From IMG/VR virus record IMGVR_UViG_2609459832_000003, positions 1 through 19,442 of that record: DNA of 19,442 nt. One strand, given 5' to 3'. The notes beneath the pieces are model-generated. The model searched no databases, was not told the origin of the DNA, and was given only the letters and a program-made list of their open reading frames with translations. A program made the translations under genes and the position numbers. Positions 1 to 10,791 of the stretch are shown here, piece after piece (position 1 is the stretch's first letter; the number at the start of each line of letters is the position of its first letter). This DNA is from a virus (Duplodnaviria; Heunggongvirae; Uroviricota; Caudoviricetes).

Positions 1-582
1 CACTGTTCCACAGTACATATCACCCAGCATTAACGTGCCGGATGCACCCGATGAAAAAATATTGTTACCACCACCAATACTCACCTGAATTTTGTCAGTC
101 CGGTCATCTGATACATAAAACGATGTATTTCCAACTAATGAGCGGTTGCAGTACAGACTGGCTGAGACATAGCCGTTTTCGTTTCGCGTTGCGAAAATTT
201 CATAGTAATAACTGGCTGCTTCATCAGGATACGGGGTTGTAAATGAATAGCCATTAATCCTGATGTGGGATGGCGAAGATGAATATTTCTTTCCCGCACT
301 TAATGTCAGACGAAATCCCAGCTGTACAGCTGAGGCTTTTAAGTCCGGAAGTGTGCTGTACAGTGTGACATATGAGGGTGTCGTAAAAATCAGCCCCGTT
401 CTTTCTACAGTATTTACGGCCTGAGTGCCACGACAGACGGATGTTACAGAACCGGACATATCATTGATAAGCGTGACACCGTTTTCGTTCAGTGCTGAAA
501 TAATATTTGTTGAATAATAGTTCTCGCACAATCCCTCATTCGCCGGAATTTGTCGAAAACTTTCGAGTTTAATAATATTCAA
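1..582 (-). CDS. Partial CDS (N-terminal ~194 aa; gene continues past the window start): putative tail fiber / receptor-binding protein
   Basis: Minus-strand frame has no stop from 600 down to 1 (checked triplet by triplet). TTG start at 580-582 sits 6 nt after an AAGGAGAG Shine-Dalgarno and 24 nt after the stop of the upstream baseplate gene. Position right after the gp48-like gene is where Mu/P2-type clusters put the fiber. Missing from the ORF track because it has no ATG start and no stop in the window. G+C looks lower (~40-45% in sampled lines) than the rest of the tail operon. Confidence 0.45.
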   Translation of the reverse strand, partial: MNIIKLESFRQIPANEGLCENYYSTNIISALNENGVTLINDMSGSVTSVCRGTQAVNTVERTGLIFTTPSYVTLYSTLPDLKASAVQLGFRLTLSAGKKYSSSPSHIRINGYSFTTPYPDEAASYYYEIFATRNENGYVSASLYCNRSLVGNTSFYVSDDRTDKIQVSIGGGNNIFSSGASGTLMLGDMYCGTV

Positions 583-605
583 AGCGGCTCTCCTTTTATT
601 TTATG

Positions 606-1565
606 TCATTCGGACGTGACCACAGCAAAATGCAGTCCCGGGTGATTAATCAATAACGGTTCACGGGTTCTGCTGGCTGTCTGCAACTGCATACTGTTAA
701 CCGGTACGGGGGAGCGGGTCCTGTATCCCGTCTGCAACTGTGCGCTGTTCATGGTCATGGGGTCCGTTGTCGGCAGACCTGAGTGCAATTGCGCCCTGCT
801 GAGTACCAGTGGTTCTGCCATCGGACGGGCGGCATAAAAGTTAATCCGGTTAATTGTCAGCGGCTTACCTGTCAGTGCCGGAACAACCGCAAAATGAACA
901 CCTGTATGATTAATCGCTAATGGCTCAGTCGTCTTGTGTCCGGCCTGAAAGGAGAGGCTGTTTATAGTCAGGGCGGCTTGTTGCCCTTCACCAGACTCAT
1001 CCGGATATGCAAAAAGGACAACAGTATGCGACGGACATAATTTATTAATCACGCACTCCGCAACCGTATCACCCCACGTCCGGATCGGTGTGTTACAGGT
1101 GTCCGAACATGTCTGCCACTGAGCACCGGCATCCACCGGCAACGTCACACGCCAGAAATAACGCCAGCGATCACCCCATTCCGGATCGGGGCTTGCATCC
1201 AGGTGCTGGAACTGTTCGATCGTCACGCCGGTATATCCCAGCGCCTCAAGCTGCTCCAGGAAGAACTGCTCATTTATGCCACCAGCCACATTGGCTTTTG
1301 CTTCCAGCCGTTGCTGACGCTGGCGTAATGTCTGGGCTCCAACAGGAGAGCAGGTGTCAGGTAAACCATACAATTCTTCATAACGTTCAATCAGCTCTGT
1401 TGACTGACCAGGATCGATTTCAGCCATCAGTTCATCAGCCCGCTGATGAACACGTACAAGCGATGGTGCCAGACCATCAAGCACGCCGTCGGTATCGCTC
1501 CATGCAGGCCCCGGCGGCATCAGTCCGTACAGCAGCTTTGTATAATCATCCTGTAACGAATCCAT
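606..1565 (-). CDS. Baseplate protein, Mu gp48 / P2 gpI-like (DUF2313-type N-terminal domain) with a repeat-containing C-terminal extension
   Basis: N-terminus (MDSLQDDYTKLLYGLMPPGPAWS...ELYGLPDTCSP) matches the DUF2313/YmfQ-type proteins that follow baseplate J in Mu-like tails. Start overlaps the stop of the J-like gene (TAATG at 1563-1567). At 319 aa it is longer than typical ~190-aa homologues. Confidence 0.7.
   Translation of the reverse strand: MDSLQDDYTKLLYGLMPPGPAWSDTDGVLDGLAPSLVRVHQRADELMAEIDPGQSTELIERYEELYGLPDTCSPVGAQTLRQRQQRLEAKANVAGGINEQFFLEQLEALGYTGVTIEQFQHLDASPDPEWGDRWRYFWRVTLPVDAGAQWQTCSDTCNTPIRTWGDTVAECVINKLCPSHTVVLFAYPDESGEGQQAALTINSLSFQAGHKTTEPLAINHTGVHFAVVPALTGKPLTINRINFYAARPMAEPLVLSRAQLHSGLPTTDPMTMNSAQLQTGYRTRSPVPVNSMQLQTASRTREPLLINHPGLHFAVVTSE
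621..928. repeat. Imperfect direct repeats inside the 3' end of the gp48-like gene
   Basis: A ~45-bp imperfect direct repeat at ~621-664 and ~884-928 (shared core tgattaatc) encodes EPLLINHPGLHFAVV / EPLAINHTGVHFAVV. Three ~25-bp units at 681-704, 732-754 and 778-804 (ctgcaactg...) encode the xxAQLQTG-like motifs. Confidence 0.6.
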
Positions 1566-3607: not shown

Positions 3608-4686
3608 CAGAACGGGTCCTCCTGTACTCTGGCTTTTTTCTTTTTCCGCGCGCCGGGAGCCTCGGGTTCAGGCAGATAAGCATCAGGCGGGCCGACACGG
3701 ATTTCCGTCAGGGTGCCGTTCTGGTCCTGAGTAAACGTGACTTCCGAGACAAGCAGTTCGGTATTGTCGAAACCACAGACCGGATCAAAGACAATCACCC
3801 GCTGGTTGGGCTGCCACAGCGTACCGTTACCCTGTCGCCAGCCCTGCACCACATAGGTGGTTTCATCCGTCCGCGCCGCCCGTTGTCGGGCTTCAAAGTC
3901 AGCACGGGCAATACAACCTGCCCCCGTAGCCTGCCCTGTCTGCCTGATATACATCGGACGGTAACGGGCAATAAATGCGTCCTCTGTGCGGGCCCTCAGC
4001 GCGGTGGTGGTGGCCTCACCGAAATCATCGTCGTTTCCGGCACGCTGCCCCGCCACCTGGTAAACAGAAAACCGCTCCCGGACACTCTTCTCCGTATCGC
4101 AGGAAAGGATGTTTTCCCCGAGCACCAGCGCAGTATGCGCCCGCGTTGAGCCAATACCGCCAATCACCAGCCTGCCGTGCGGGTCGTCGTAAGCCAGTGC
4201 CTGCTGCTGACCGAGTATTTTGTTGATTACCTCAATCACCGTTTCACCATGATCGGGCTGGACGTCAGGAATAACACCCGACGGCGCACCGCTGTTCACC
4301 ACCTCAATGCCGAAGGGCGCAGCAAGCGCCTGCGCAATCTGTACCAGCGATCGTCCGTTAAACTGTGTCGGTTCGGCTGCACAGTCAATCAGGTCAGCAG
4401 TCAGACTACGTCCGGCAATACCGGTGCTGACCGAACGGGCATCGTAACGAACGGGGGTCGCCTCCACCCAGCCGGTGATCACCAGTTCATCACCAATCAG
4501 CACCTCCACTTTTGAACCGTTTTTAATGCGCGGCTGAAGCGTGGTGATACCCTCACCCCCCGGCCACTGGCGGGTGATCTCCACACTGAAATCCCGTGCC
4601 AGCCGTTCAATACCGGCACCGATGCGCACCGATGTCCAGCCATTCCACTCCCGGCCATTTACCCGTAGCGTGACATTGTCGTTCAT
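3607..4686 (-). CDS. Tail/baseplate hub protein (Mu gp44 'P' / P2 gpD-like)
   Basis: 359-aa ORF immediately after the DNA-circulation gene (ATGA overlap at 4683-4686), as in Mu gp43-gp44. Confidence 0.7.
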   Translation of the reverse strand: MNDNVTLRVNGREWNGWTSVRIGAGIERLARDFSVEITRQWPGGEGITTLQPRIKNGSKVEVLIGDELVITGWVEATPVRYDARSVSTGIAGRSLTADLIDCAAEPTQFNGRSLVQIAQALAAPFGIEVVNSGAPSGVIPDVQPDHGETVIEVINKILGQQQALAYDDPHGRLVIGGIGSTRAHTALVLGENILSCDTEKSVRERFSVYQVAGQRAGNDDDFGEATTTALRARTEDAFIARYRPMYIRQTGQATGAGCIARADFEARQRAARTDETTYVVQGWRQGNGTLWQPNQRVIVFDPVCGFDNTELLVSEVTFTQDQNGTLTEIRVGPPDAYLPEPEAPGARKKKKARVQEDPF

Positions 4687-6011
4687 TGCACTGGCACCTT
4701 CAGAGGGATCACCGGCACAAAGCCGGGATGCGTAATGGCATTACGCCGGATAATGTCCTCGTCACGCGCCGCGTTATCAAACCAGGTCGCCGCCAGCACC
4801 AGCGCGGGTAAAACCTCATCCGGTGTGCGCTGAATGATCCGTGCAGACTGTTCAAGGCGCGTGTTGATATCCGCATTCAGATCTGCTTTCACCCGGCGCA
4901 GCGCCAGAAACAGCGCATCACTGGTTGTACGGGACAACTCCTTATCAATTGCCGTATTCAGTGTGTCGCGAATGTCGGTCAGTTCTTCCCACGTCGGCAG
5001 GTCAACCGTGTTTTTCACCGCCGGTGCATTGTTCAGTGCCGGATGCGTGACGGAAGGCCAGCCAGTGCTCTGCGCAGGTGTTGTTGCCTGCCCCACTGTG
5101 GCATTCTGCATCACTGCGGAAGTTGTTGGCGCAGGCAATCGGGTGACGGCATACGCCGCTTCGCTGATTGCGGTCGTACGAAGGGTGCTGGCAACCACGT
5201 TACGCTGCTGCGTCGCCGTGGCGGTAGTTTTACTGTCCGTTTTCCAGATGCCGCGCGGTTGCAGATCGCTGCCGAGGCTGACACCGGAAAGCGTTTTGAT
5301 CATGGTGACAAGGTCGCTGGCGTTACCATAAAGGCGTTTCCCGGTACGCCACATTTTCTGCACCTGCTCAACGAAATTTTTGCCTGACGATGGTGGCGGC
5401 AGAAGTACCGAGATATCCCCCTGCAACAGCCTGGCAGCATCCGATACGGCAGAATCCACCACTTTCATCGCATCAGAAACATACCCAAGCATTGTGCTGG
5501 CATTACCTACGACGTCGTTCTGCACAAAATCTGCCACGCCATCGATACTGAAACCACTGAAGCTGTCACTGATGCAGTCATCCAGTGCAGAACAGGATGA
5601 CATCAGCGTCTGCGCCGTCGCCGCACCTGAAGTGGGGTAAGAGAGTTCTCCCGCTTCGACAAACTTCAGGTCAAAGCGGACAATACGCCCTTCGCTCTTC
5701 GATGTGCTGACCCGAACCTCCCCGTCAACACAGACTTTCAGCTCACCGTATGTCGGATGGACAAGCGTGCCGGGACCGGGTTTATTCAGCGCGTCAATCA
5801 GGCGATCGCGCTGGTCAAAGCAGTCATCTCCCACCACATAAGCCGTGATGGACGGGCGGAAAGTGATTTTCCCCAGGTCTTCGGTATAGGGTTTGTCACG
5901 GTTCGGGTATTCGTGCGTTTCCACACGACGACCGGTTCCCGCACTTTCTTCTTCAACCTTAAACGGCACGCCGCGAAATGACGCGTCCTGAAGTCTGTCT
6001 TTCCACGTCAT
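4683..6011 (-). CDS. DNA circulation protein (Mu gp43 'N' family)
   Basis: N-terminus MTWKDRLQDASFRGVPFKV...GRRVETHEYPNRDKPYTEDLG matches the conserved DNA-circulation N-terminal domain. 442 aa. GGAG Shine-Dalgarno 6 nt upstream of the ATG at 6011. Confidence 0.8.
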   Translation of the reverse strand: MTWKDRLQDASFRGVPFKVEEESAGTGRRVETHEYPNRDKPYTEDLGKITFRPSITAYVVGDDCFDQRDRLIDALNKPGPGTLVHPTYGELKVCVDGEVRVSTSKSEGRIVRFDLKFVEAGELSYPTSGAATAQTLMSSCSALDDCISDSFSGFSIDGVADFVQNDVVGNASTMLGYVSDAMKVVDSAVSDAARLLQGDISVLLPPPSSGKNFVEQVQKMWRTGKRLYGNASDLVTMIKTLSGVSLGSDLQPRGIWKTDSKTTATATQQRNVVASTLRTTAISEAAYAVTRLPAPTTSAVMQNATVGQATTPAQSTGWPSVTHPALNNAPAVKNTVDLPTWEELTDIRDTLNTAIDKELSRTTSDALFLALRRVKADLNADINTRLEQSARIIQRTPDEVLPALVLAATWFDNAARDEDIIRRNAITHPGFVPVIPLKVPVQ

Positions 6012-6026
6012 ATAAACTCCGGATAC

Positions 6027-6082
6027 AAAAAACCCGCCAAATCTGCTTTGTCAGTTATTTACAGCGCAGAAGATGTGGCGGG
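6027..6082 (-). terminator. Rho-independent terminator at the 3' end of the AT-rich moron
   Basis: On the minus strand, CCCGCCA (rc of 6076-6082) pairs with UGGCGGG (rc of 6033-6039), with further AUCU/AGAU pairing inside, followed directly by U6 (rc of the A-run 6027-6032). It lies 20 nt after the moron stop codon and just before the gp43 ribosome-binding site. Confidence 0.6.
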
Positions 6083-6101
6083 AATCTAATATTTTTAATT
6101 A

Positions 6102-6596
6102 CTATCTGAGTTGAACATCAATGGAATAAACATCACCACTCTTTATAAATTTAGAATCTGTCCTTTCATCAAAAGATTCAAATGACTGTACATTTAAAAA
6201 CTTTTTCATTTTATTTTCAAAAATACTTTCATTAACACCAGTTAAATATTTGAATGCTCTACCAGCAAGGACCTCATTACTTAAATCCATTGTGTTTTTA
6301 TTGTCTTTGAAAAACCAAACAATAACCTTTTGTGGGCATGATGGATTATAAACAGATATATAAAACTGCGGCTCATATTTTTCATCAGCATCATCACTGA
6401 GCATTTCTTCAGAAGATAATTCTCTTCTGAATTCATATTGCCGCTTAGTGATTCCTTCATCCTTTATTATCTCTTGCTTAACTGGTGCAATACCTATAGA
6501 AGAGATTAATTCTGACTCATTAAAGTTGAACTTACACTCTTCCGCAGCCAAGTTAAAAGATAAAAGTGCAGATATAAAAAAAACAAAGATACGCAT
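6102..6596 (-). CDS. Hypothetical secreted (signal-peptide) protein of unknown function, encoded by an AT-rich moron
   Basis: Complete ORF, stop at 6102. Longest ORF starts at 6614 (MIEGMIM...), but the ATG at 6596 has a GAAGGG Shine-Dalgarno 6 nt upstream and gives a textbook signal peptide: MR + IFVFFISALLSF + NLA/AEE. Very AT-rich codon usage unlike all neighbours. Two Cys in the mature part. No family recognised from memory. Confidence 0.7.
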   Translation of the reverse strand: MRIFVFFISALLSFNLAAEECKFNFNESELISSIGIAPVKQEIIKDEGITKRQYEFRRELSSEEMLSDDADEKYEPQFYISVYNPSCPQKVIVWFFKDNKNTMDLSNEVLAGRAFKYLTGVNESIFENKMKKFLNVQSFESFDERTDSKFIKSGDVYSIDVQLR

Positions 6597-6626
6597 AATC
6601 ATCCCTTCAATCATTTGTAAGGAATG

Positions 6627-6658
6627 ATTATATTAACTACTTAAAGCTGAAAAGCCAA
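6627..6658 (-). promoter_or_regulatory. Candidate sigma70-type promoter for the moron gene
   Basis: On the minus strand: TTGGCT (rc of 6653-6658), 17-nt spacer, TAATAT (rc of 6630-6635), overlapping a perfect TATAAT (rc of 6627-6632). Sits in the 81-bp AT-rich gap between the tape-measure stop and the moron ORF. Predicted start site would give a ~25-nt leader to the 6596 ATG. Confidence 0.35.
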
Positions 6659-6695
6659 ATCATGCCAGACAAAAACACATTAATCATTTTGTACA

Positions 6696-8528
6696 CTACC
6701 TGAACCGCGTATAGCCAACATCATGGCTGACATCAAAACCGCTGGATCGCGTTTCCATAACCCGCATACCCGGAGGCGAATTCACAAAAGAGACCTTGAT
6801 CTCACCATCAACTTTTGGCACAAAAGCTTTGTTAATCATGAAGGGATTCGGGCCTGTGGCATCGGAGGCGTTGTTTGACTGAGCCGGATCTACCGCCGGA
6901 TAAGGTGTGTATCCCCGCGCCGGTATTCCCGTCCCATAAGCATCATAAGCACCCGCGCCCCACTGCGCAGAGTTAATGGCATCGACCGTGTCACCGGAAC
7001 TGTCGGTAAACCACTCAATAATGGGCTTCAGCTTGTCCCACATATCCTGAAACCACTTAACAACCGGCCCCCAGTTATTGATCACCATTCCCAGCGGCGA
7101 CCAGGCAAAAACTTTCTTAAGGAGTTCCCAGCCAGCCTCAAAATAAGGACCAATGGTTTCCCAGAGCTTCTTAAAATAAGGTCCGACAACATCCCAGTTA
7201 GTGATAATTAATCCCGCAGCCAGAGCAATCGCCGTCGCAATCATGCCAATCGGCGTCATCGACATGATCCTGCTGACAATACTGATGGCACCGCCCACGC
7301 CCATCAATCCCAGTTTCAGAATCGCAAGACCGGCAGCAAGCCCGACGATGCCGCGAATAACCCGGGGATTTTCATCCGCAAACTTCGTGAATTTTTCCCC
7401 CAACTCCCCCAGCCATTGCGTGATATTTTTGGCGTCACCAGAAAATGCGCCGCCAATAGCCGCAAGGCCGTTAGTTGCGGTCCCTGTCATTGCCTCCCAC
7501 AGATTGGACAGCGTACCAAGCTGTGCCTGAACACGTTTATTCAGGCTGGCCTGTTTATTCATCTTCTGCTGGATCTGATCGTAACCATCCTTTCCTTTAT
7601 CGATCAGAGCATTGACCACCTGAAGGGTTTCGGCATCATCACCAAATATTGCCTTAAGTACACCTGTTCGCTTAACGTCGGTCAGTTTTCGCAGCTTTGC
7701 CAGTTGCTTAAACATGTTATCAAGACCGCCAAAACTCCCTTTGCCGTCAGTAAAATCGAGCTGCACTCCGAGTTTCTGGCGGGCCATGACTTTATTGACG
7801 TCCCTGATTTTCTTAACGCTTAATCCGGACTGGATAACTTTTCGCAGGGCGTTACCTGCCGACTCCCCGTTCATCCCCATCTGATCCATCATGACGCTGA
7901 TGGGGGCAAGGCTCTGTGCAGCCTGAAGACCGTCCTTGTTCACCATCTTCAGAACAGAGCTGGTTTTAGTGAAGAAGGACAACATGTTGGTATCGTCAAC
8001 GCCCAGATAAAACGCCTTCTGGATAGTGTCGAACAGCCCCATCATGTCTTCTGACGCCGTTCCGGTAGCATCCTGCATCTTTGCGGCAAACTCGGCAGCC
8101 GCTTCCGGTGTTTTTTTCAGTTGTACCGCAAGATAAGCTGTCGCTTTACCCACACCGCCAAGAATGTTTTCTGCCGGGATCCCCTGACGCACCAGCATCT
8201 GCATCATGTTCTGGAAATCAGCCGTTGTACCGGGTAGCTGGTTACCCAGGCCAATAGCCAGTTTATTGATGTCCTGAAAGCGCTTTCCAACCTCGCCGTT
8301 CGCATCCATCATGGCGACTTTCAGCCCGGTGGCGGCGTTTTCCTGATCGGCATAAGATTTCAGGGAAAGCGTCAAACCCGCTGCCAGTCCGCCACCAAGC
8401 GCCAGCCCACCCTGTGACGCTTCTTCCGCCTGGCGTTTAAATCCCCGGATTTTCTTTTGCATTTTCGACAGCGCGGGAGAAAGCCTGTCGACACCGGTGA
8501 TCAACGCCTTAAGCTCAAATTCAGCCAT
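6696..8528 (-). CDS. Tail tape measure protein
   Basis: 610-aa ORF after the chaperone/frameshift pair. Central hydrophobic stretch and periodic aromatic residues (NWDVVGPYFKKLWETIGPYFEAGWELLKKVFAW...WFQDMWDKL) are typical of tape-measure proteins. Gly/Ala-rich. Confidence 0.85.
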   Translation of the reverse strand: MAEFELKALITGVDRLSPALSKMQKKIRGFKRQAEEASQGGLALGGGLAAGLTLSLKSYADQENAATGLKVAMMDANGEVGKRFQDINKLAIGLGNQLPGTTADFQNMMQMLVRQGIPAENILGGVGKATAYLAVQLKKTPEAAAEFAAKMQDATGTASEDMMGLFDTIQKAFYLGVDDTNMLSFFTKTSSVLKMVNKDGLQAAQSLAPISVMMDQMGMNGESAGNALRKVIQSGLSVKKIRDVNKVMARQKLGVQLDFTDGKGSFGGLDNMFKQLAKLRKLTDVKRTGVLKAIFGDDAETLQVVNALIDKGKDGYDQIQQKMNKQASLNKRVQAQLGTLSNLWEAMTGTATNGLAAIGGAFSGDAKNITQWLGELGEKFTKFADENPRVIRGIVGLAAGLAILKLGLMGVGGAISIVSRIMSMTPIGMIATAIALAAGLIITNWDVVGPYFKKLWETIGPYFEAGWELLKKVFAWSPLGMVINNWGPVVKWFQDMWDKLKPIIEWFTDSSGDTVDAINSAQWGAGAYDAYGTGIPARGYTPYPAVDPAQSNNASDATGPNPFMINKAFVPKVDGEIKVSFVNSPPGMRVMETRSSGFDVSHDVGYTRFR

Positions 8529-8703
8529 GTGTGCGTTTCTCCTGCTCTATCCTGTTTGCCTGACTGACCAGCAAGGGAATTTCACTGATCGGCATATTCA
8601 GCAATTCGAAGGGATTAATGCGCCAGTAGCTGGCGCAGTCAAAGAAGCGATCAGTGAGGTATTCAGCCGTCAGGCCTGGAGGAAAAAACCAGCCACAAGC
8701 CAC
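8521..8703 (-). CDS. -1 frame C-terminal extension of the tail assembly chaperone (expressed as a fusion by programmed frameshift, not as a separate gene)
   Basis: ORF in the -1 frame relative to the chaperone, overlapping its last ~11 codons and ending 5 nt before the tape-measure ATG. Slippery heptamer at the overlap (see 8682-8688). Confidence 0.65.
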   Translation of the reverse strand: MACGWFFPPGLTAEYLTDRFFDCASYWRINPFELLNMPISEIPLLVSQANRIEQEKRTHG

Positions 8704-8939
8704 GCCGCTGCATTCAGGTCTGCCGGAGACATCTGGTCGACAGAGCTTTGCGGCACTTTCGCCAGCCGCACAATGTATTTCGACACCACATGCGCCAGAA
8801 GTCTGACGGACTCATCCTGATTCATCTGGTAGGGATACCCCAGCTCGCGGACATCCTTCCCGGTGGGCTCATCAAACTCCAGTACGGAGAGTGTCTCGCC
8901 ATGAGCAGTAATCGGTTTCTTTAACTCAAGCTCTTTCAT
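8670..8939 (-). CDS. Tail assembly chaperone (lambda G-like role; Mu gp41-like position)
   Basis: 89-aa ORF between tube and tape-measure genes. Start overlaps the tube stop (TAATG at 8937-8941). Ends 3 codons after a slippery site. Confidence 0.7.
   Translation of the reverse strand: MKELELKKPITAHGETLSVLEFDEPTGKDVRELGYPYQMNQDESVRLLAHVVSKYIVRLAKVPQSSVDQMSPADLNAAAWLVAGFFLQA
8682..8688 (-). promoter_or_regulatory. Programmed -1 ribosomal frameshift slippery heptamer T_TTT_TTC
   Basis: Minus-strand sequence GCU GGU UUU UUC CUC CAG GCC UGA. The zero-frame codons TTT TTC form an X_XXY_YYZ heptamer; a -1 slip reads TTT TTT CCT CCA GGC... into the 8521-8703 ORF. Confidence 0.65.
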
Positions 8940-9295
8940 TACTGGTAATCCCCTTCTTCACCGTGGAACTCAAGATCAACCGTGCCTTCTTCGGCATTAT
9001 GGTTCGCTTCGCCGTGCAGCCAGGCAGACGACAGTACATAGACCTGACCGTTCGCCAGCTCGGCAGTGATGGTCATCTCATCAGACGAGGTGATTTTGCC
9101 CACCGGAAAATTCTTCGGCACCTTGAAGGTCCCTTTGACATAAGGCGCACGGTGAGTTTCCTTGCGGTCCACTGAACCGTCCAGGCCGATGATGTCATCA
9201 TTGACCGTCCTGTTCATGGGCACCTCAATGCCGCCGGTCAGCGATAGCTGCTGACCGTCAATTTTGAAATAACAGGTTCCCCCGATACGGGCCAT
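8939..9295 (-). CDS. Tail tube protein (contractile tail; Mu gp40 'M'-like)
   Basis: 118-aa ORF immediately after the sheath gene (TAATG overlap at 9293-9297). Size and synteny. Confidence 0.75.
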   Translation of the reverse strand: MARIGGTCYFKIDGQQLSLTGGIEVPMNRTVNDDIIGLDGSVDRKETHRAPYVKGTFKVPKNFPVGKITSSDEMTITAELANGQVYVLSSAWLHGEANHNAEEGTVDLEFHGEEGDYQ

Positions 9296-10791
9296 TATGC
9301 AGACTCCTCTGAATACTGAAGACGGAACTGGTTAACCACGGCAAAGACACGCAACTGGTTAACATAGTCAGGCGGGAACAGCGTGTTCAGGCGATTTGGA
9401 TCGCTGGCATCACGCTCCACAACCAGGTACTGCTTGAACAGTTCGTAGTTTTCCACGATCCCCGCACGCTCGAGCTGACGGTAGGTTGCCAGCAGTTCCC
9501 CTTTGATCACCGCCGGGGTGACAATCGCCTGACCGGGACCAAAGCGGGTACCGTCACTGGCAAGCTTGTGACGCCCGTACTTACTGGTAATGACGGATTT
9601 CAGTTTGCGCAGTACATACGCACTGGTATGCAGCGTCTCGCTGTCGAGGTAGCTGTTATCCGCAACCCCGTAAGCGTTTTTCCTGTACGTGGTGACATCA
9701 CGCTGAATGCGCAGCACCCCGCTTTCGACATACGCCGTTGCCACGCCATGAGACAGCAGGGTCTGCTGCTCGGTCATCGTGAACCGTTTCCCCTTCGGCG
9801 CAGGCAGCATACCCACCAGCTCACCGGTCTGCGTGGGACGTGCCGGATCGTTGCGGATAAACACTGCCGCGCGGGCGGTACGGCTGGCTGCCAGCTCGTC
9901 GGCAGGCGTCTGGGGGTCTTTTTCGTACCCCGCCAGGGTAATGTGCTGCTGGTTAAACTGGTCACCTGCGGTCACCAGTTCTGACAGCGTGCCGGTCTTT
10001 GCCGTATACACATGACCATACAGCTGACGCGCATAGCTCCAGCGACCGCTGGTATCGTTCATCTCGGTCACCAGCGTGTTAACGGAGGCCGTGTCGCTGA
10101 ACGGCAGGCCGATATAATCAAACGGCTCATCCGCCATTGCAGCCACCGCGCCGGTGAGAACAGGAGCGCCCGTTCCGGCGGTACCCGTCGCCACGGCAAT
10201 CTGTACGCCCGCTGGCAGCACTTCGCCCCCACCAAAGCCGTAGTAATTGAGGCTGACAGGAATTTCATTCCCGCAAAGCCCCTTATGACGCGCGGTCAGT
10301 GTGACCACGCCTGCCGAAGATGAAGCCGTAAACGGCAGGGTCGGAACGGCATTGATGGCATCCTGGATACTGCTGGCAATCATCGTGACGTTATCGCCGT
10401 TAGTCACCGGTGCCTGCACGCGGGTACGTCCCACATACACATTCACCGTGCCGGTTTCGGTTGCCGCCCCGGTCACCGTCAGCGTAACCGTTGCCGCCGC
10501 GCCTGTGGATTCAGGAACGGCAATCACATACAGCTCGCCAAACGGGTCAGTCTGGCGATAAGCCTCGACCATACGCGCCAGCTGACTTCCCGCACCACAA
10601 ATCTGGCGTGCATAGTCTGCCGACGGCATCAGTACCAGACTGTTGGCAACAATCTCTGCACCGTTATTGGCATGACCAATCAGCAGCGATGCTCCGCTGT
10701 CCTGTGCAGTATTCGCCGCCTGGTTATCCATTTCCGCATAAAACAACGGAACCAGCGTATTCGACGGAATGGTGTTAAAGCTTATCGTCAT
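9295..10791 (-). CDS. Tail sheath protein (contractile tail; Mu gp39 'L'-like)
   Basis: 498-aa ORF followed by tube, chaperone and tape measure. Size and synteny characteristic of myovirus sheath proteins. Confidence 0.85.
   Translation of the reverse strand: MTISFNTIPSNTLVPLFYAEMDNQAANTAQDSGASLLIGHANNGAEIVANSLVLMPSADYARQICGAGSQLARMVEAYRQTDPFGELYVIAVPESTGAAATVTLTVTGAATETGTVNVYVGRTRVQAPVTNGDNVTMIASSIQDAINAVPTLPFTASSSAGVVTLTARHKGLCGNEIPVSLNYYGFGGGEVLPAGVQIAVATGTAGTGAPVLTGAVAAMADEPFDYIGLPFSDTASVNTLVTEMNDTSGRWSYARQLYGHVYTAKTGTLSELVTAGDQFNQQHITLAGYEKDPQTPADELAASRTARAAVFIRNDPARPTQTGELVGMLPAPKGKRFTMTEQQTLLSHGVATAYVESGVLRIQRDVTTYRKNAYGVADNSYLDSETLHTSAYVLRKLKSVITSKYGRHKLASDGTRFGPGQAIVTPAVIKGELLATYRQLERAGIVENYELFKQYLVVERDASDPNRLNTLFPPDYVNQLRVFAVVNQFRLQYSEESA

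Follow-up and report, generated by a model that had tools for sequence, protein, structure and literature searches.

Introduction

Envelope proteins by which phages exclude superinfecting phages include P1 Sim, T4 Sp and Imm, T5 Llp, Cor of phi80 and HK022, and P22 SieA. Phage-encoded superinfection-exclusion proteins of the envelope have been covered in earlier publications (PMC3594210; PMC10883804). A moron, in the sense of Juhala/Hendrix 2000, is extra DNA with its own composition, promoter and terminator that is expressed in the prophage and spreads horizontally (PMC3594210), and one such moron product, gp15 of HK97, is located in the envelope and blocks DNA entry in a tail-region-dependent way (PMC3594210). 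Hotspots of antiviral systems were described for P2 and P4 (Rousset et al., 2022, PMC9122126), as were "moron positions" for P2 (PMC3573123). This study concerns an AT-rich block and its single gene, here called X, which lie between the tape-measure protein (TMP) gene and the DNA-circulation gene (gpN) in the tail operon of a virus of the class Caudoviricetes. The window, i.e., the stretch of DNA analyzed, comprises all 19,442 nt of the record IMGVR_UViG_2609459832_000003, and coordinates are window positions throughout.

With the help of comparative genomics we conclude that (i) the segment at 6036-6703 is very probably one allele of a polymorphic slot in the tail module of SfV-type temperate myophages, with X as an old cargo gene there, and (ii) the reading to be favored overall, with modest confidence, is that of a long-resident cargo gene whose product is probably exported and may block phage entry. 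No earlier description of the TMP/gpN slot or of X was found in the literature.

The AT-Rich Block and Its Boundaries

The features on which the comparison of the locus rests are the following:

6102-6596, minus strand: gene X, 164 aa, PHROG 8976, RefSeq WP_032220455.1 "hypothetical protein" (open reading frame (ORF) table, PHROG match, RefSeq, family alignment)
6036-6703, minus strand: variable cargo segment of the TMP/gpN slot, 668 nt, G+C content (GC) about 0.31 (alignments to SfII, SfV and SKA5; composition)
6012-6026, minus strand: conserved left slot edge, consisting of the gpN Shine-Dalgarno sequence (CGGAG) and spacer, common to phages with and without cargo (nine slot variants compared)
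6696-8528, minus strand: TMP gene, 610 aa, upstream neighbor of X (SKA5, SfII and UTAK-3 annotations; PF10145, PhageMin_Tail, in homologous loci)
4683-6011, minus strand: gpN gene (Mu gp43/N-like), 442 aa, downstream neighbor of X (phage annotations; PF07157, DNA_circ_N, in homologous loci)

An earlier note on this DNA had described an AT-rich block with GC far below that of its flanks, and the sliding-window analysis bears this out. Using 300-nt windows, GC was 0.30-0.35 over positions 6000-6750 vs. 0.51-0.60 on either side, and using 500-nt windows the minimum of the whole 19.4 kb was found at 6091-6590 (0.30, z = -8.1; elsewhere mean 0.554, sd 0.031). The block at 6023-6706 has a GC of 0.316 and the X ORF one of 0.309, as compared to 0.519 for TMP and 0.561 for gpN, and the block thus does not resemble its flanks (0.31 vs. 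0.52 and 0.56). GC at third codon positions (GC3) is 0.25 in X, 0.58 in TMP and 0.61 in gpN. The note had also stated that gene junctions elsewhere in the tail operon are tight. This is true of most of the tail module, where minus-strand genes overlap or are separated by at most 14 nt according to the ORF table; the exceptions are three, namely the gaps of 99 and 90 nt beside the X ORF and one of 141 nt before TMP, and the last is explained by a frameshift extension of the tail chaperone, which fills it. Because its GC lies 8 sd below the rest of the window and the tail junctions are otherwise tight, the block is real and far from chance.

The extra DNA had been placed at 6012-6695. Its existence stands, and its limits have to be shifted: alignment to SfII gives a replaced segment of 668 nt at 6036-6703 (47 nt in SfII), because positions 6012-6035 (ribosome-binding site (RBS) of gpN and terminator T-run) are common to phages without X and the last approximately 8 nt of TMP differ. 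The left edge with the gpN start, the CGGAG RBS and the terminator T-run was common to all nine slot variants compared. As the note had it, there is one ORF in the block: X is its sole credible gene, the other two ORFs of at least 50 aa being nested within X, and it is encoded on the minus strand in the same direction as the tail operon, a strand that the note had left unstated. The repeat search and the ORF table also agree with the note in that no inverted repeats bounding 6036-6703 and no transposase gene in the block were found; direct repeats at its limits were not found either. Cargo of an insertion sequence or transposon was ruled out, the block being without transposase, terminal inverted repeats and bounding direct repeats. 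An Rfam scan of 5900-6850 returned nothing above threshold and only sub-threshold eukaryotic snoRNA noise.

Phages With and Without X

A prophage at ydfJ in E. coli UTAK-3 matches the window without any difference (100% identity) across the 1.9 kb that were compared, and the isolated phage SKA5 carries the entire block at 96% identity. In a megablast search against phage records, SfV, SfI, SfII and vB_EcoM-689R6 matched both flanks at 96-98% identity with about 620 nt of the block absent, their TMP/gpN spacer being only approximately 47-60 nt long. The TMP gene of SfIV has no DNA-level match to the window, and its TMP/gpN gap is 24 nt. The block is thus absent from these close relatives, a point on which the earlier note is supported. 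Judged from these genomes, X is dispensable for virion formation, because SfV, SfI, SfII and SfIV do without it. A role as a tail structural or assembly protein was rejected, given that X is missing from the viable phages SfV, SfI, SfII and SfIV as well as from the majority of the 1097 junction-bearing E. coli genomes (see below) and has a predicted cleavable signal peptide, whereas virion assembly takes place in the cytoplasm.

Homologs of X with 41-68% amino acid identity were identified in exactly the same slot in Kosakonia, Atlantibacter, Pantoea phage AH07 (42%), metagenomic prophages and others. All homologs that could be placed in a phage context lie between a TMP gene of the PhageMin_Tail family and a DNA_circ_N gene, which holds for 30 of 30 IMG/VR loci and for the loci L005-L012 and L051-L056; the remote relatives P0016 (in CP011078.1) and P0022 occupy the TMP/gpN position, too. 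In every homologous locus X is AT-rich (GC 0.31-0.42 vs. 0.47-0.59 for its neighbors), and in every host it lies 12-25 GC points below them. The loci rank in the same order by identity of X as by identity of TMP, gpN and sheath, with X at 40-60% and TMP at 56-78%. Within E. coli, the synonymous divergence (dS) of X is 0.055-0.078 for most alleles, which is similar to that of the flanks (0.08-0.13), and 0.17-0.20, or about twice that of the flanks, for the allele group of L039, L041 and L042. Strict synteny, AT-richness everywhere, co-divergence with the flanks and flank-like dS indicate from sequence comparison that X is an old resident of the slot, evolving faster than its structural neighbors, and not recently imported.

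Nor is X an ancestral structural gene. The earlier note had held that a homologous gene with matching GC at this position in all related phages would point to one. The position is indeed shared by all 30 IMG/VR loci, but GC of X is low everywhere and X is not universal; together with the predicted signal peptide this argues against such an origin. The patchy presence of X among near-identical E. coli and Shigella phages would be best explained by cassette exchange via the conserved flanks, or by deletion. Spread of X to other contexts was not observed: phage-context homologs were all in the TMP/gpN slot and the sole non-phage copy is degenerate. This remote relative (P0020; L057 5001-5471; E = 9e-17) is without a signal peptide and resides at a chromosomal locus directly downstream of a gene for a 1079-aa pertactin-type autotransporter, with YqeJ_C and Trans_reg_C genes nearby, and may be a domesticated or decaying copy of X.

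A Multi-Allelic Slot in E. coli

A set of 5426 complete E. coli genomes was searched using the 1.9-kb TMP/gpN junction as query. The junction was matched in 1097 genomes, about a fifth, and SfV-type tail modules are thus common; the insert was covered in only 84 of them. X is present in 85 of the 5426 genomes, always beside the TMP gene and with its frame intact. Most junction copies have an empty form of 1280 bp, and each of the others carries a low-GC gene from a set of at least five that are unrelated to one another. This multi-allelic nature of the slot had been overlooked in the earlier note. The alternative cargoes are:

225 aa, same strand as the operon: L015 lipoprotein with lipobox LLGGC, in 55 E. 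coli genomes
176 aa, same strand as the operon: L016, N-terminal membrane anchor, in 178 E. coli genomes
128-148 aa, opposite strand: L017/L019 OB-fold protein, N-terminal membrane anchor, PF12869, phrog_8545, in 72 E. coli genomes
145 aa, opposite strand: L018, two transmembrane segments, in 6 E. coli genomes

All of these have a GC of 0.34-0.42 and none had a PADLOC match. For the OB-fold cargo, a match to phrog_8545, "superinfection exclusion Sie-like," was obtained (E = 1.5e-49). No sequence similarity was found between X and the same-strand cargoes L015 and L016; all slot occupants are predicted to be envelope-targeted.

Outside the slot, two extra genes (506 and 93 aa, both without Pfam hits) separate the DNA-circulation gene from the gpP-like baseplate gene in an Atlantibacter prophage (L012 7980-9778), and this may represent a second cargo position of the tail module.

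Gene X and Its Predicted Product

Two further features define the start of the gene:

6602-6607, minus strand: Shine-Dalgarno sequence AAGGGA of X, 5 nt upstream of the ATG at 6596 (sequence read; GGG/GGA run kept in homologs)
6543-6596, minus strand: part of X coding for the predicted signal peptide, residues 1-18 (MRIFVFFISALLSFNLAA / EEC) (n-h-c layout in 11 homologs; AlphaFold)

X sits in a longer ORF of 170 aa (6102-6614). Its extent was set to 6102-6596 because the PHROG 8976 alignment begins at Met7 of that ORF, the homologs all start with MR..., the RefSeq call has 164 aa, and AAGGGA is located 5 nt upstream. X is a full-length member of PHROG 8976 (E = 4e-106), a membership that explains nothing since this PHROG is of unknown function and has no functional annotation. 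No domain matches were obtained in Pfam, NCBIfam and PADLOC, a comparison of the family profile with PDB sequences gave only noise, and no fold match to the model was found. The family is very small: a profile search of 1.8 billion clustered proteins yielded 13 representatives, none of which provided a bridge to any known family. The repetitive 1766-aa protein P0025 was taken as a spurious match, its best stretch covering profile positions 19-63 only (E = 3e-8).

X was compared with seven E. coli alleles and its ratio of nonsynonymous to synonymous divergence (dN/dS) was 0.11-0.19 (TMP 0.05-0.10, gpN 0.06-0.09); it is a real gene under purifying selection. An alignment of 11 sequences reaching down to 40% identity contains 33 invariant columns. 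In this alignment a basic n-region at the N-terminus leads into a hydrophobic core of approximately 12 residues and then to Ala18, which is invariant and precedes (E/D/S/G/V)(E/Q)C; position -3 of the putative cleavage site is small or aliphatic in the 11 homologs. Cys21 and Cys87 are invariant as well, which fits the expectation for a periplasmic disulfide. The AlphaFold model (predicted local distance difference test (pLDDT) 87, predicted template modeling score (pTM) 0.78) has a confident alpha+beta domain at residues 21-164, a helix at residues 3-12 and low pLDDT at residues 12-18. X is accordingly predicted to be exported by Sec and cleaved by signal peptidase I after Ala18, and we infer a mature alpha+beta domain of about 146 aa with a predicted Cys21-Cys87 disulfide. 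A periplasmic location is likely.

Transcription and Translation Signals

The putative signals around X are:

6027-6082, minus strand: intrinsic terminator after X, with stem CCCGCCA/UGGCGGG (6076-6082 / 6033-6039), inner stem and U6 tract (6027-6032) (fold, inverted repeat I3)
6628-6659, minus strand: weak candidate sigma-70 promoter, TTGGCT (6654-6659), 17-nt spacer, TAATAT (6631-6636) (8/12 in own scan)
6595-6631, minus strand: 13-bp leader hairpin in which the putative -10 region is paired to the RBS and ATG of X (inverted repeat I6; RNA fold)

A terminator had been proposed for the insert, and a hairpin with a U6 tract is found at 6027-6082 (-24.6 kcal/mol, z = -3.1). A terminator of the form CCCGC...GCGGG-T7 is present 3' of X in all diverged homologs and also 3' of the unrelated L015 lipoprotein cargo, and a compact form, (A)CCCGCTTCGGCGGG-T7, is located directly before the gpN RBS in Kosakonia, Atlantibacter, Pantoea, L008, L051 and L056. 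The empty slot of SfII and SfV keeps a hairpin-U6 terminator as well, albeit a different one; the SfII record annotates it (L002 2022-2060), and it was overlooked in the earlier note. Since the empty slot has one too, the terminator before gpN is a property of the slot and may not belong to the cargo. A rho-independent terminator just 5' of the gpN RBS was thus seen where the slot is empty and likewise behind each of the same-strand cargoes examined; with opposite-strand cargoes a GC-rich hairpin at the TMP end takes its place.

To judge from these loci, SfV-type phages appear to conserve a terminator inside the late tail operon, which implies dependence on antitermination. In the UTAK-3 prophage the Q position is occupied by a DUF1133 gene, which we take to be Q-like. 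Late genes of SfV-type phages are served by a lambdoid Q antiterminator (PMC3851460). With Q antitermination, late transcription would pass the terminator, at which unmodified polymerase would stop. No terminator-like site was detected between TMP and X, and X would therefore be co-transcribed late in any case.

For the candidate promoter that the note had also proposed, the evidence is weak. The best site matches 8 of 12 consensus positions, with a perfect TATAAT at 6628-6633 overlapping its -10 element TAATAT, and a strict consensus scan upstream of X found 0 sites at threshold. In each of the three lineages with a long spacer that were scored (window/E. coli, L008, L012), the ATG is preceded by a TAnnAT hexamer at a distance of 31-33 nt, and matching hexamers are aligned in L043 and L045. 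The MAFFT alignment of the TATAAT of the window with "GGGTATAATCG" of Pantoea-type loci was discounted as promoter conservation, because the motif encodes the conserved G-Y-N-R end of TMP.

The leader hairpin has a predicted free energy of -16.5 kcal/mol (z = -4.6), and 0 of 200 shuffled sequences were equally stable. RNAalifold gave no consensus hairpin across the diverged X homologs; it is not conserved. It may act as a translation switch that depends on the origin of the transcript, which we regard as a lead and not as a result. In such a switch, a transcript starting approximately 7 nt after the -10 element would be without the 5' arm of the hairpin and translatable, and on read-through late mRNA the hairpin would form and hide the RBS and AUG of X. 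The high-affinity motif of H-NS, TCGATAAATT, was not enriched (17 matches vs. 12.6 expected, 1 of them in the insert); the earlier note had considered the block a likely H-NS target.

Proposed Function and Alternative Explanations

Expression of X in the lysogen and a block of phage entry are suggested by the layout of the locus and by the neighboring slot alleles. In a lysogen, the weak promoter in the TMP-X spacer would give a short transcript ending at the terminator and X would be made without baseplate proteins, and during lytic growth Q-antiterminated late transcription would read through, with X also made late. Exported by Sec and cleaved after Ala18, X would fold in the periplasm with its Cys21-Cys87 disulfide and shield the lysogen or infected cell against further phage entry, possibly by interfering with a receptor or with the tail-tip/tape-measure-mediated passage of DNA through the envelope. 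That X acts in entry blocking (superinfection exclusion of the kind known from HK97 gp15, P1 Sim and T4 Sp) is, by analogy, a tentative proposal. A bolder one, which we consider unlikely, is that the junction of SfV-type prophages is an undescribed hotspot for single-gene envelope anti-phage factors, with X as founding member of a periplasmic entry-exclusion family with its own fold and the hairpin as a switch by transcript origin.

Several points speak against a lysogenic, entry-blocking function. The argument from slot company amounts to one PHROG label on an unrelated neighbor allele: X itself has no sequence or fold match to characterized superinfection-exclusion families, and only that unrelated allele matches a Sie-like PHROG. 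The signal peptide and the disulfide of X are predictions, and the strict promoter scan was negative. In short-spacer loci (Pantoea-type, L051, L056), X begins 15-17 nt past the TMP stop without room for an intergenic promoter; there it resembles an ordinary late-operon gene, and expression of X may therefore be late-lytic and not lysogenic. In addition, silencing by H-NS could keep X off in lysogens.

The main rival takes up some of these points. It holds that X is an ancestral member of the late operon, lost in the SfV/SfI/SfII clade, and that its exported product acts in lytic growth, where it might mask receptors or debris and so spare progeny, in the manner of T5 Llp, or might influence lysis or processes in the periplasm. 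The short-spacer loci favor such a late-lytic accessory function, as do the deep synteny and co-divergence of X with its flanks, its co-orientation with the operon, the lack of a terminator between TMP and X, and the negative strict scan. True module genes, however, would not be expected to lie 12-25 GC points under their neighbors in every host, X is dispensable in several well-studied phages, and in the E. coli allele it is exactly the read-through transcripts whose translation the leader hairpin would prevent. The slot moreover houses unrelated, even opposite-strand cargo elsewhere, which fits lysogenic-conversion cargo better, and we therefore regard the late-lytic function as rather unlikely. 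Less probable still is a host-fitness or virulence conversion factor that, like lambda Bor or Lom, aids the lysogen in an animal or plant niche without any phage-phage role. The moron layout and the predicted export of X would suit it, the UTAK-3 prophage has ADP-ribosyltransferase/AB5 toxin cargo elsewhere, and the hosts in which carriers occur are diverse (animal, human and plant-associated). The same diversity, with plant-associated Pantoea and Kosakonia next to gut E. coli, argues against niche-specific virulence, and the X family is, bar one degenerate copy, confined to the tail slot of one phage type. One alternative allele of this slot is, moreover, labeled Sie-like.

The earlier note had read the block as foreign AT-rich DNA that this prophage acquired recently, by a route that was unclear. 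The extreme contrast in GC and GC3 is in line with this, and so is the absence of X from SfV, SfI and SfII despite flanks of 96-98% identity. This reading is nevertheless largely refuted and now very improbable: homologs down to 41% identity occupy the identical slot in at least five genera and diverge in parallel with the flanks, dS of X within E. coli is similar to or above that of the flanks, and remote homologs share the terminator. Cassettes exchanged by homologous recombination in the conserved flanks, or deletion, would account better for the pattern of presence and absence. Non-functional AT-rich filler or a decaying pseudogene, for which one could cite that X is without a known domain, is refuted by the unbroken frame, seen in 85 E. 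coli genomes as well as in distant genera, and by the dN/dS of 0.11-0.19; given also the 33 invariant residues and the confident fold prediction, we attach next to no weight to it. The long-resident cargo gene with a probably exported product that may block phage entry remains the reading that we favor.

Neighboring Genes and Other Observations

The morphogenetic operon is encoded on the minus strand throughout and runs in the order terminase, portal, capsid, sheath, tube, chaperone, TMP, X ORF, gpN and baseplate according to the ORF table, which agrees with the annotations of the matching records (SKA5, SfII, UTAK-3 and other SfV-type phages). Its genes upstream of TMP include:

9295-10791, minus strand: sheath (ORF table)
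8939-9295, minus strand: tube (ORF table)
8670-8939, minus strand: tail assembly chaperone (ORF table)

The chaperone gene ends in a GGTTTTTTCC run, and an overlapping ORF of 60 aa (8521-8703) spans the gap to TMP, an arrangement typical of the programmed frameshift (G/GT type) in tail chaperones.

GC also drops, though less strongly, at approximately 111-610 (0.42), beside the ORF at 606-1565 (319 aa), which RefSeq flags as a partial YmfQ/gp48 in the identical UTAK-3 prophage. Because gp48 homologs have about 194 aa, the distal tail-fiber region (window positions 1-1565) looks rearranged.

Outside the window, the UTAK-3 prophage (L050) carries genes for a scabin-related ADP-ribosyltransferase and an AB5-toxin B subunit (35917-37135), placed between the DUF1133 gene at the Q position and the holin genes. 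The same Q-holin interval houses the Shiga-toxin genes in lambdoid phages. RefSeq flags frameshifts in its tail terminator gene, its small terminase gene and one holin gene (L050 25555-26114, 32588-33081 and 35212-35477, respectively); either this copy of the prophage is defective, possibly, or indel errors may be present in the assembly.

Comparison With Known Systems

What is new here is the uncharacterized gene X and a previously unremarked, envelope-themed cargo slot that is common in E. coli prophages; the type of element itself is familiar. If the slot does collect entry-blocking genes, it would be a compact place to seek new envelope-level phage-resistance proteins. Such proteins bear on prophage-mediated resistance to therapeutic phages and are missed by defense-system finders, as the lack of PADLOC matches illustrates.

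The moron layout recognized in the earlier note is apparent in the composition of the block, its dispensability, and its one ORF followed by an intrinsic terminator. X fits the moron concept in its absence from close relatives at the same position, its deviant composition and its terminator (possibly the slot's own), and fits it less in that the promoter is only an 8/12 candidate and that spread to other contexts was not seen. The locus also refines the concept: low GC and patchy presence are compatible with long vertical residence in one slot, and compositional "foreignness" is therefore no evidence of recent acquisition.

The closest precedent is gene 15 of HK97 (Juhala et al., 2000; Cumby et al., 2012), likewise a single small gene in the tail operon beside the TMP gene, with deviant GC, a terminator after it and no counterpart in close relatives. 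There is, however, no sequence similarity, gp15 being a small inner-membrane protein related to YebO and X having a predicted soluble periplasmic domain of 146 aa. HK97 gene 15 is located upstream of the TMP gene and X downstream, and gp15 has been described as an addition peculiar to HK97, whereas X is deeply conserved in its slot.

With the P2/P4 hotspots and the P2 "moron positions" the SfV-type slot shares a fixed backbone position, alternative unrelated low-GC cargo, conserved boundaries and an exchange that presumably occurs by recombination in the flanks. Those hotspots hold multi-gene cytoplasmic defense systems, whereas the slot described here holds a single small envelope-targeted protein and lies inside the tail operon. 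Like P1 Sim, T4 Sp and Imm, T5 Llp, Cor and SieA, which are targeted by a signal peptide or to the membrane and stop the incoming phage at or after adsorption, X is a small phage protein, in its case with a predicted signal peptide. It resembles none of them in sequence or fold, and the likeness is put forward as a functional analogy only, not as membership in any of these families.

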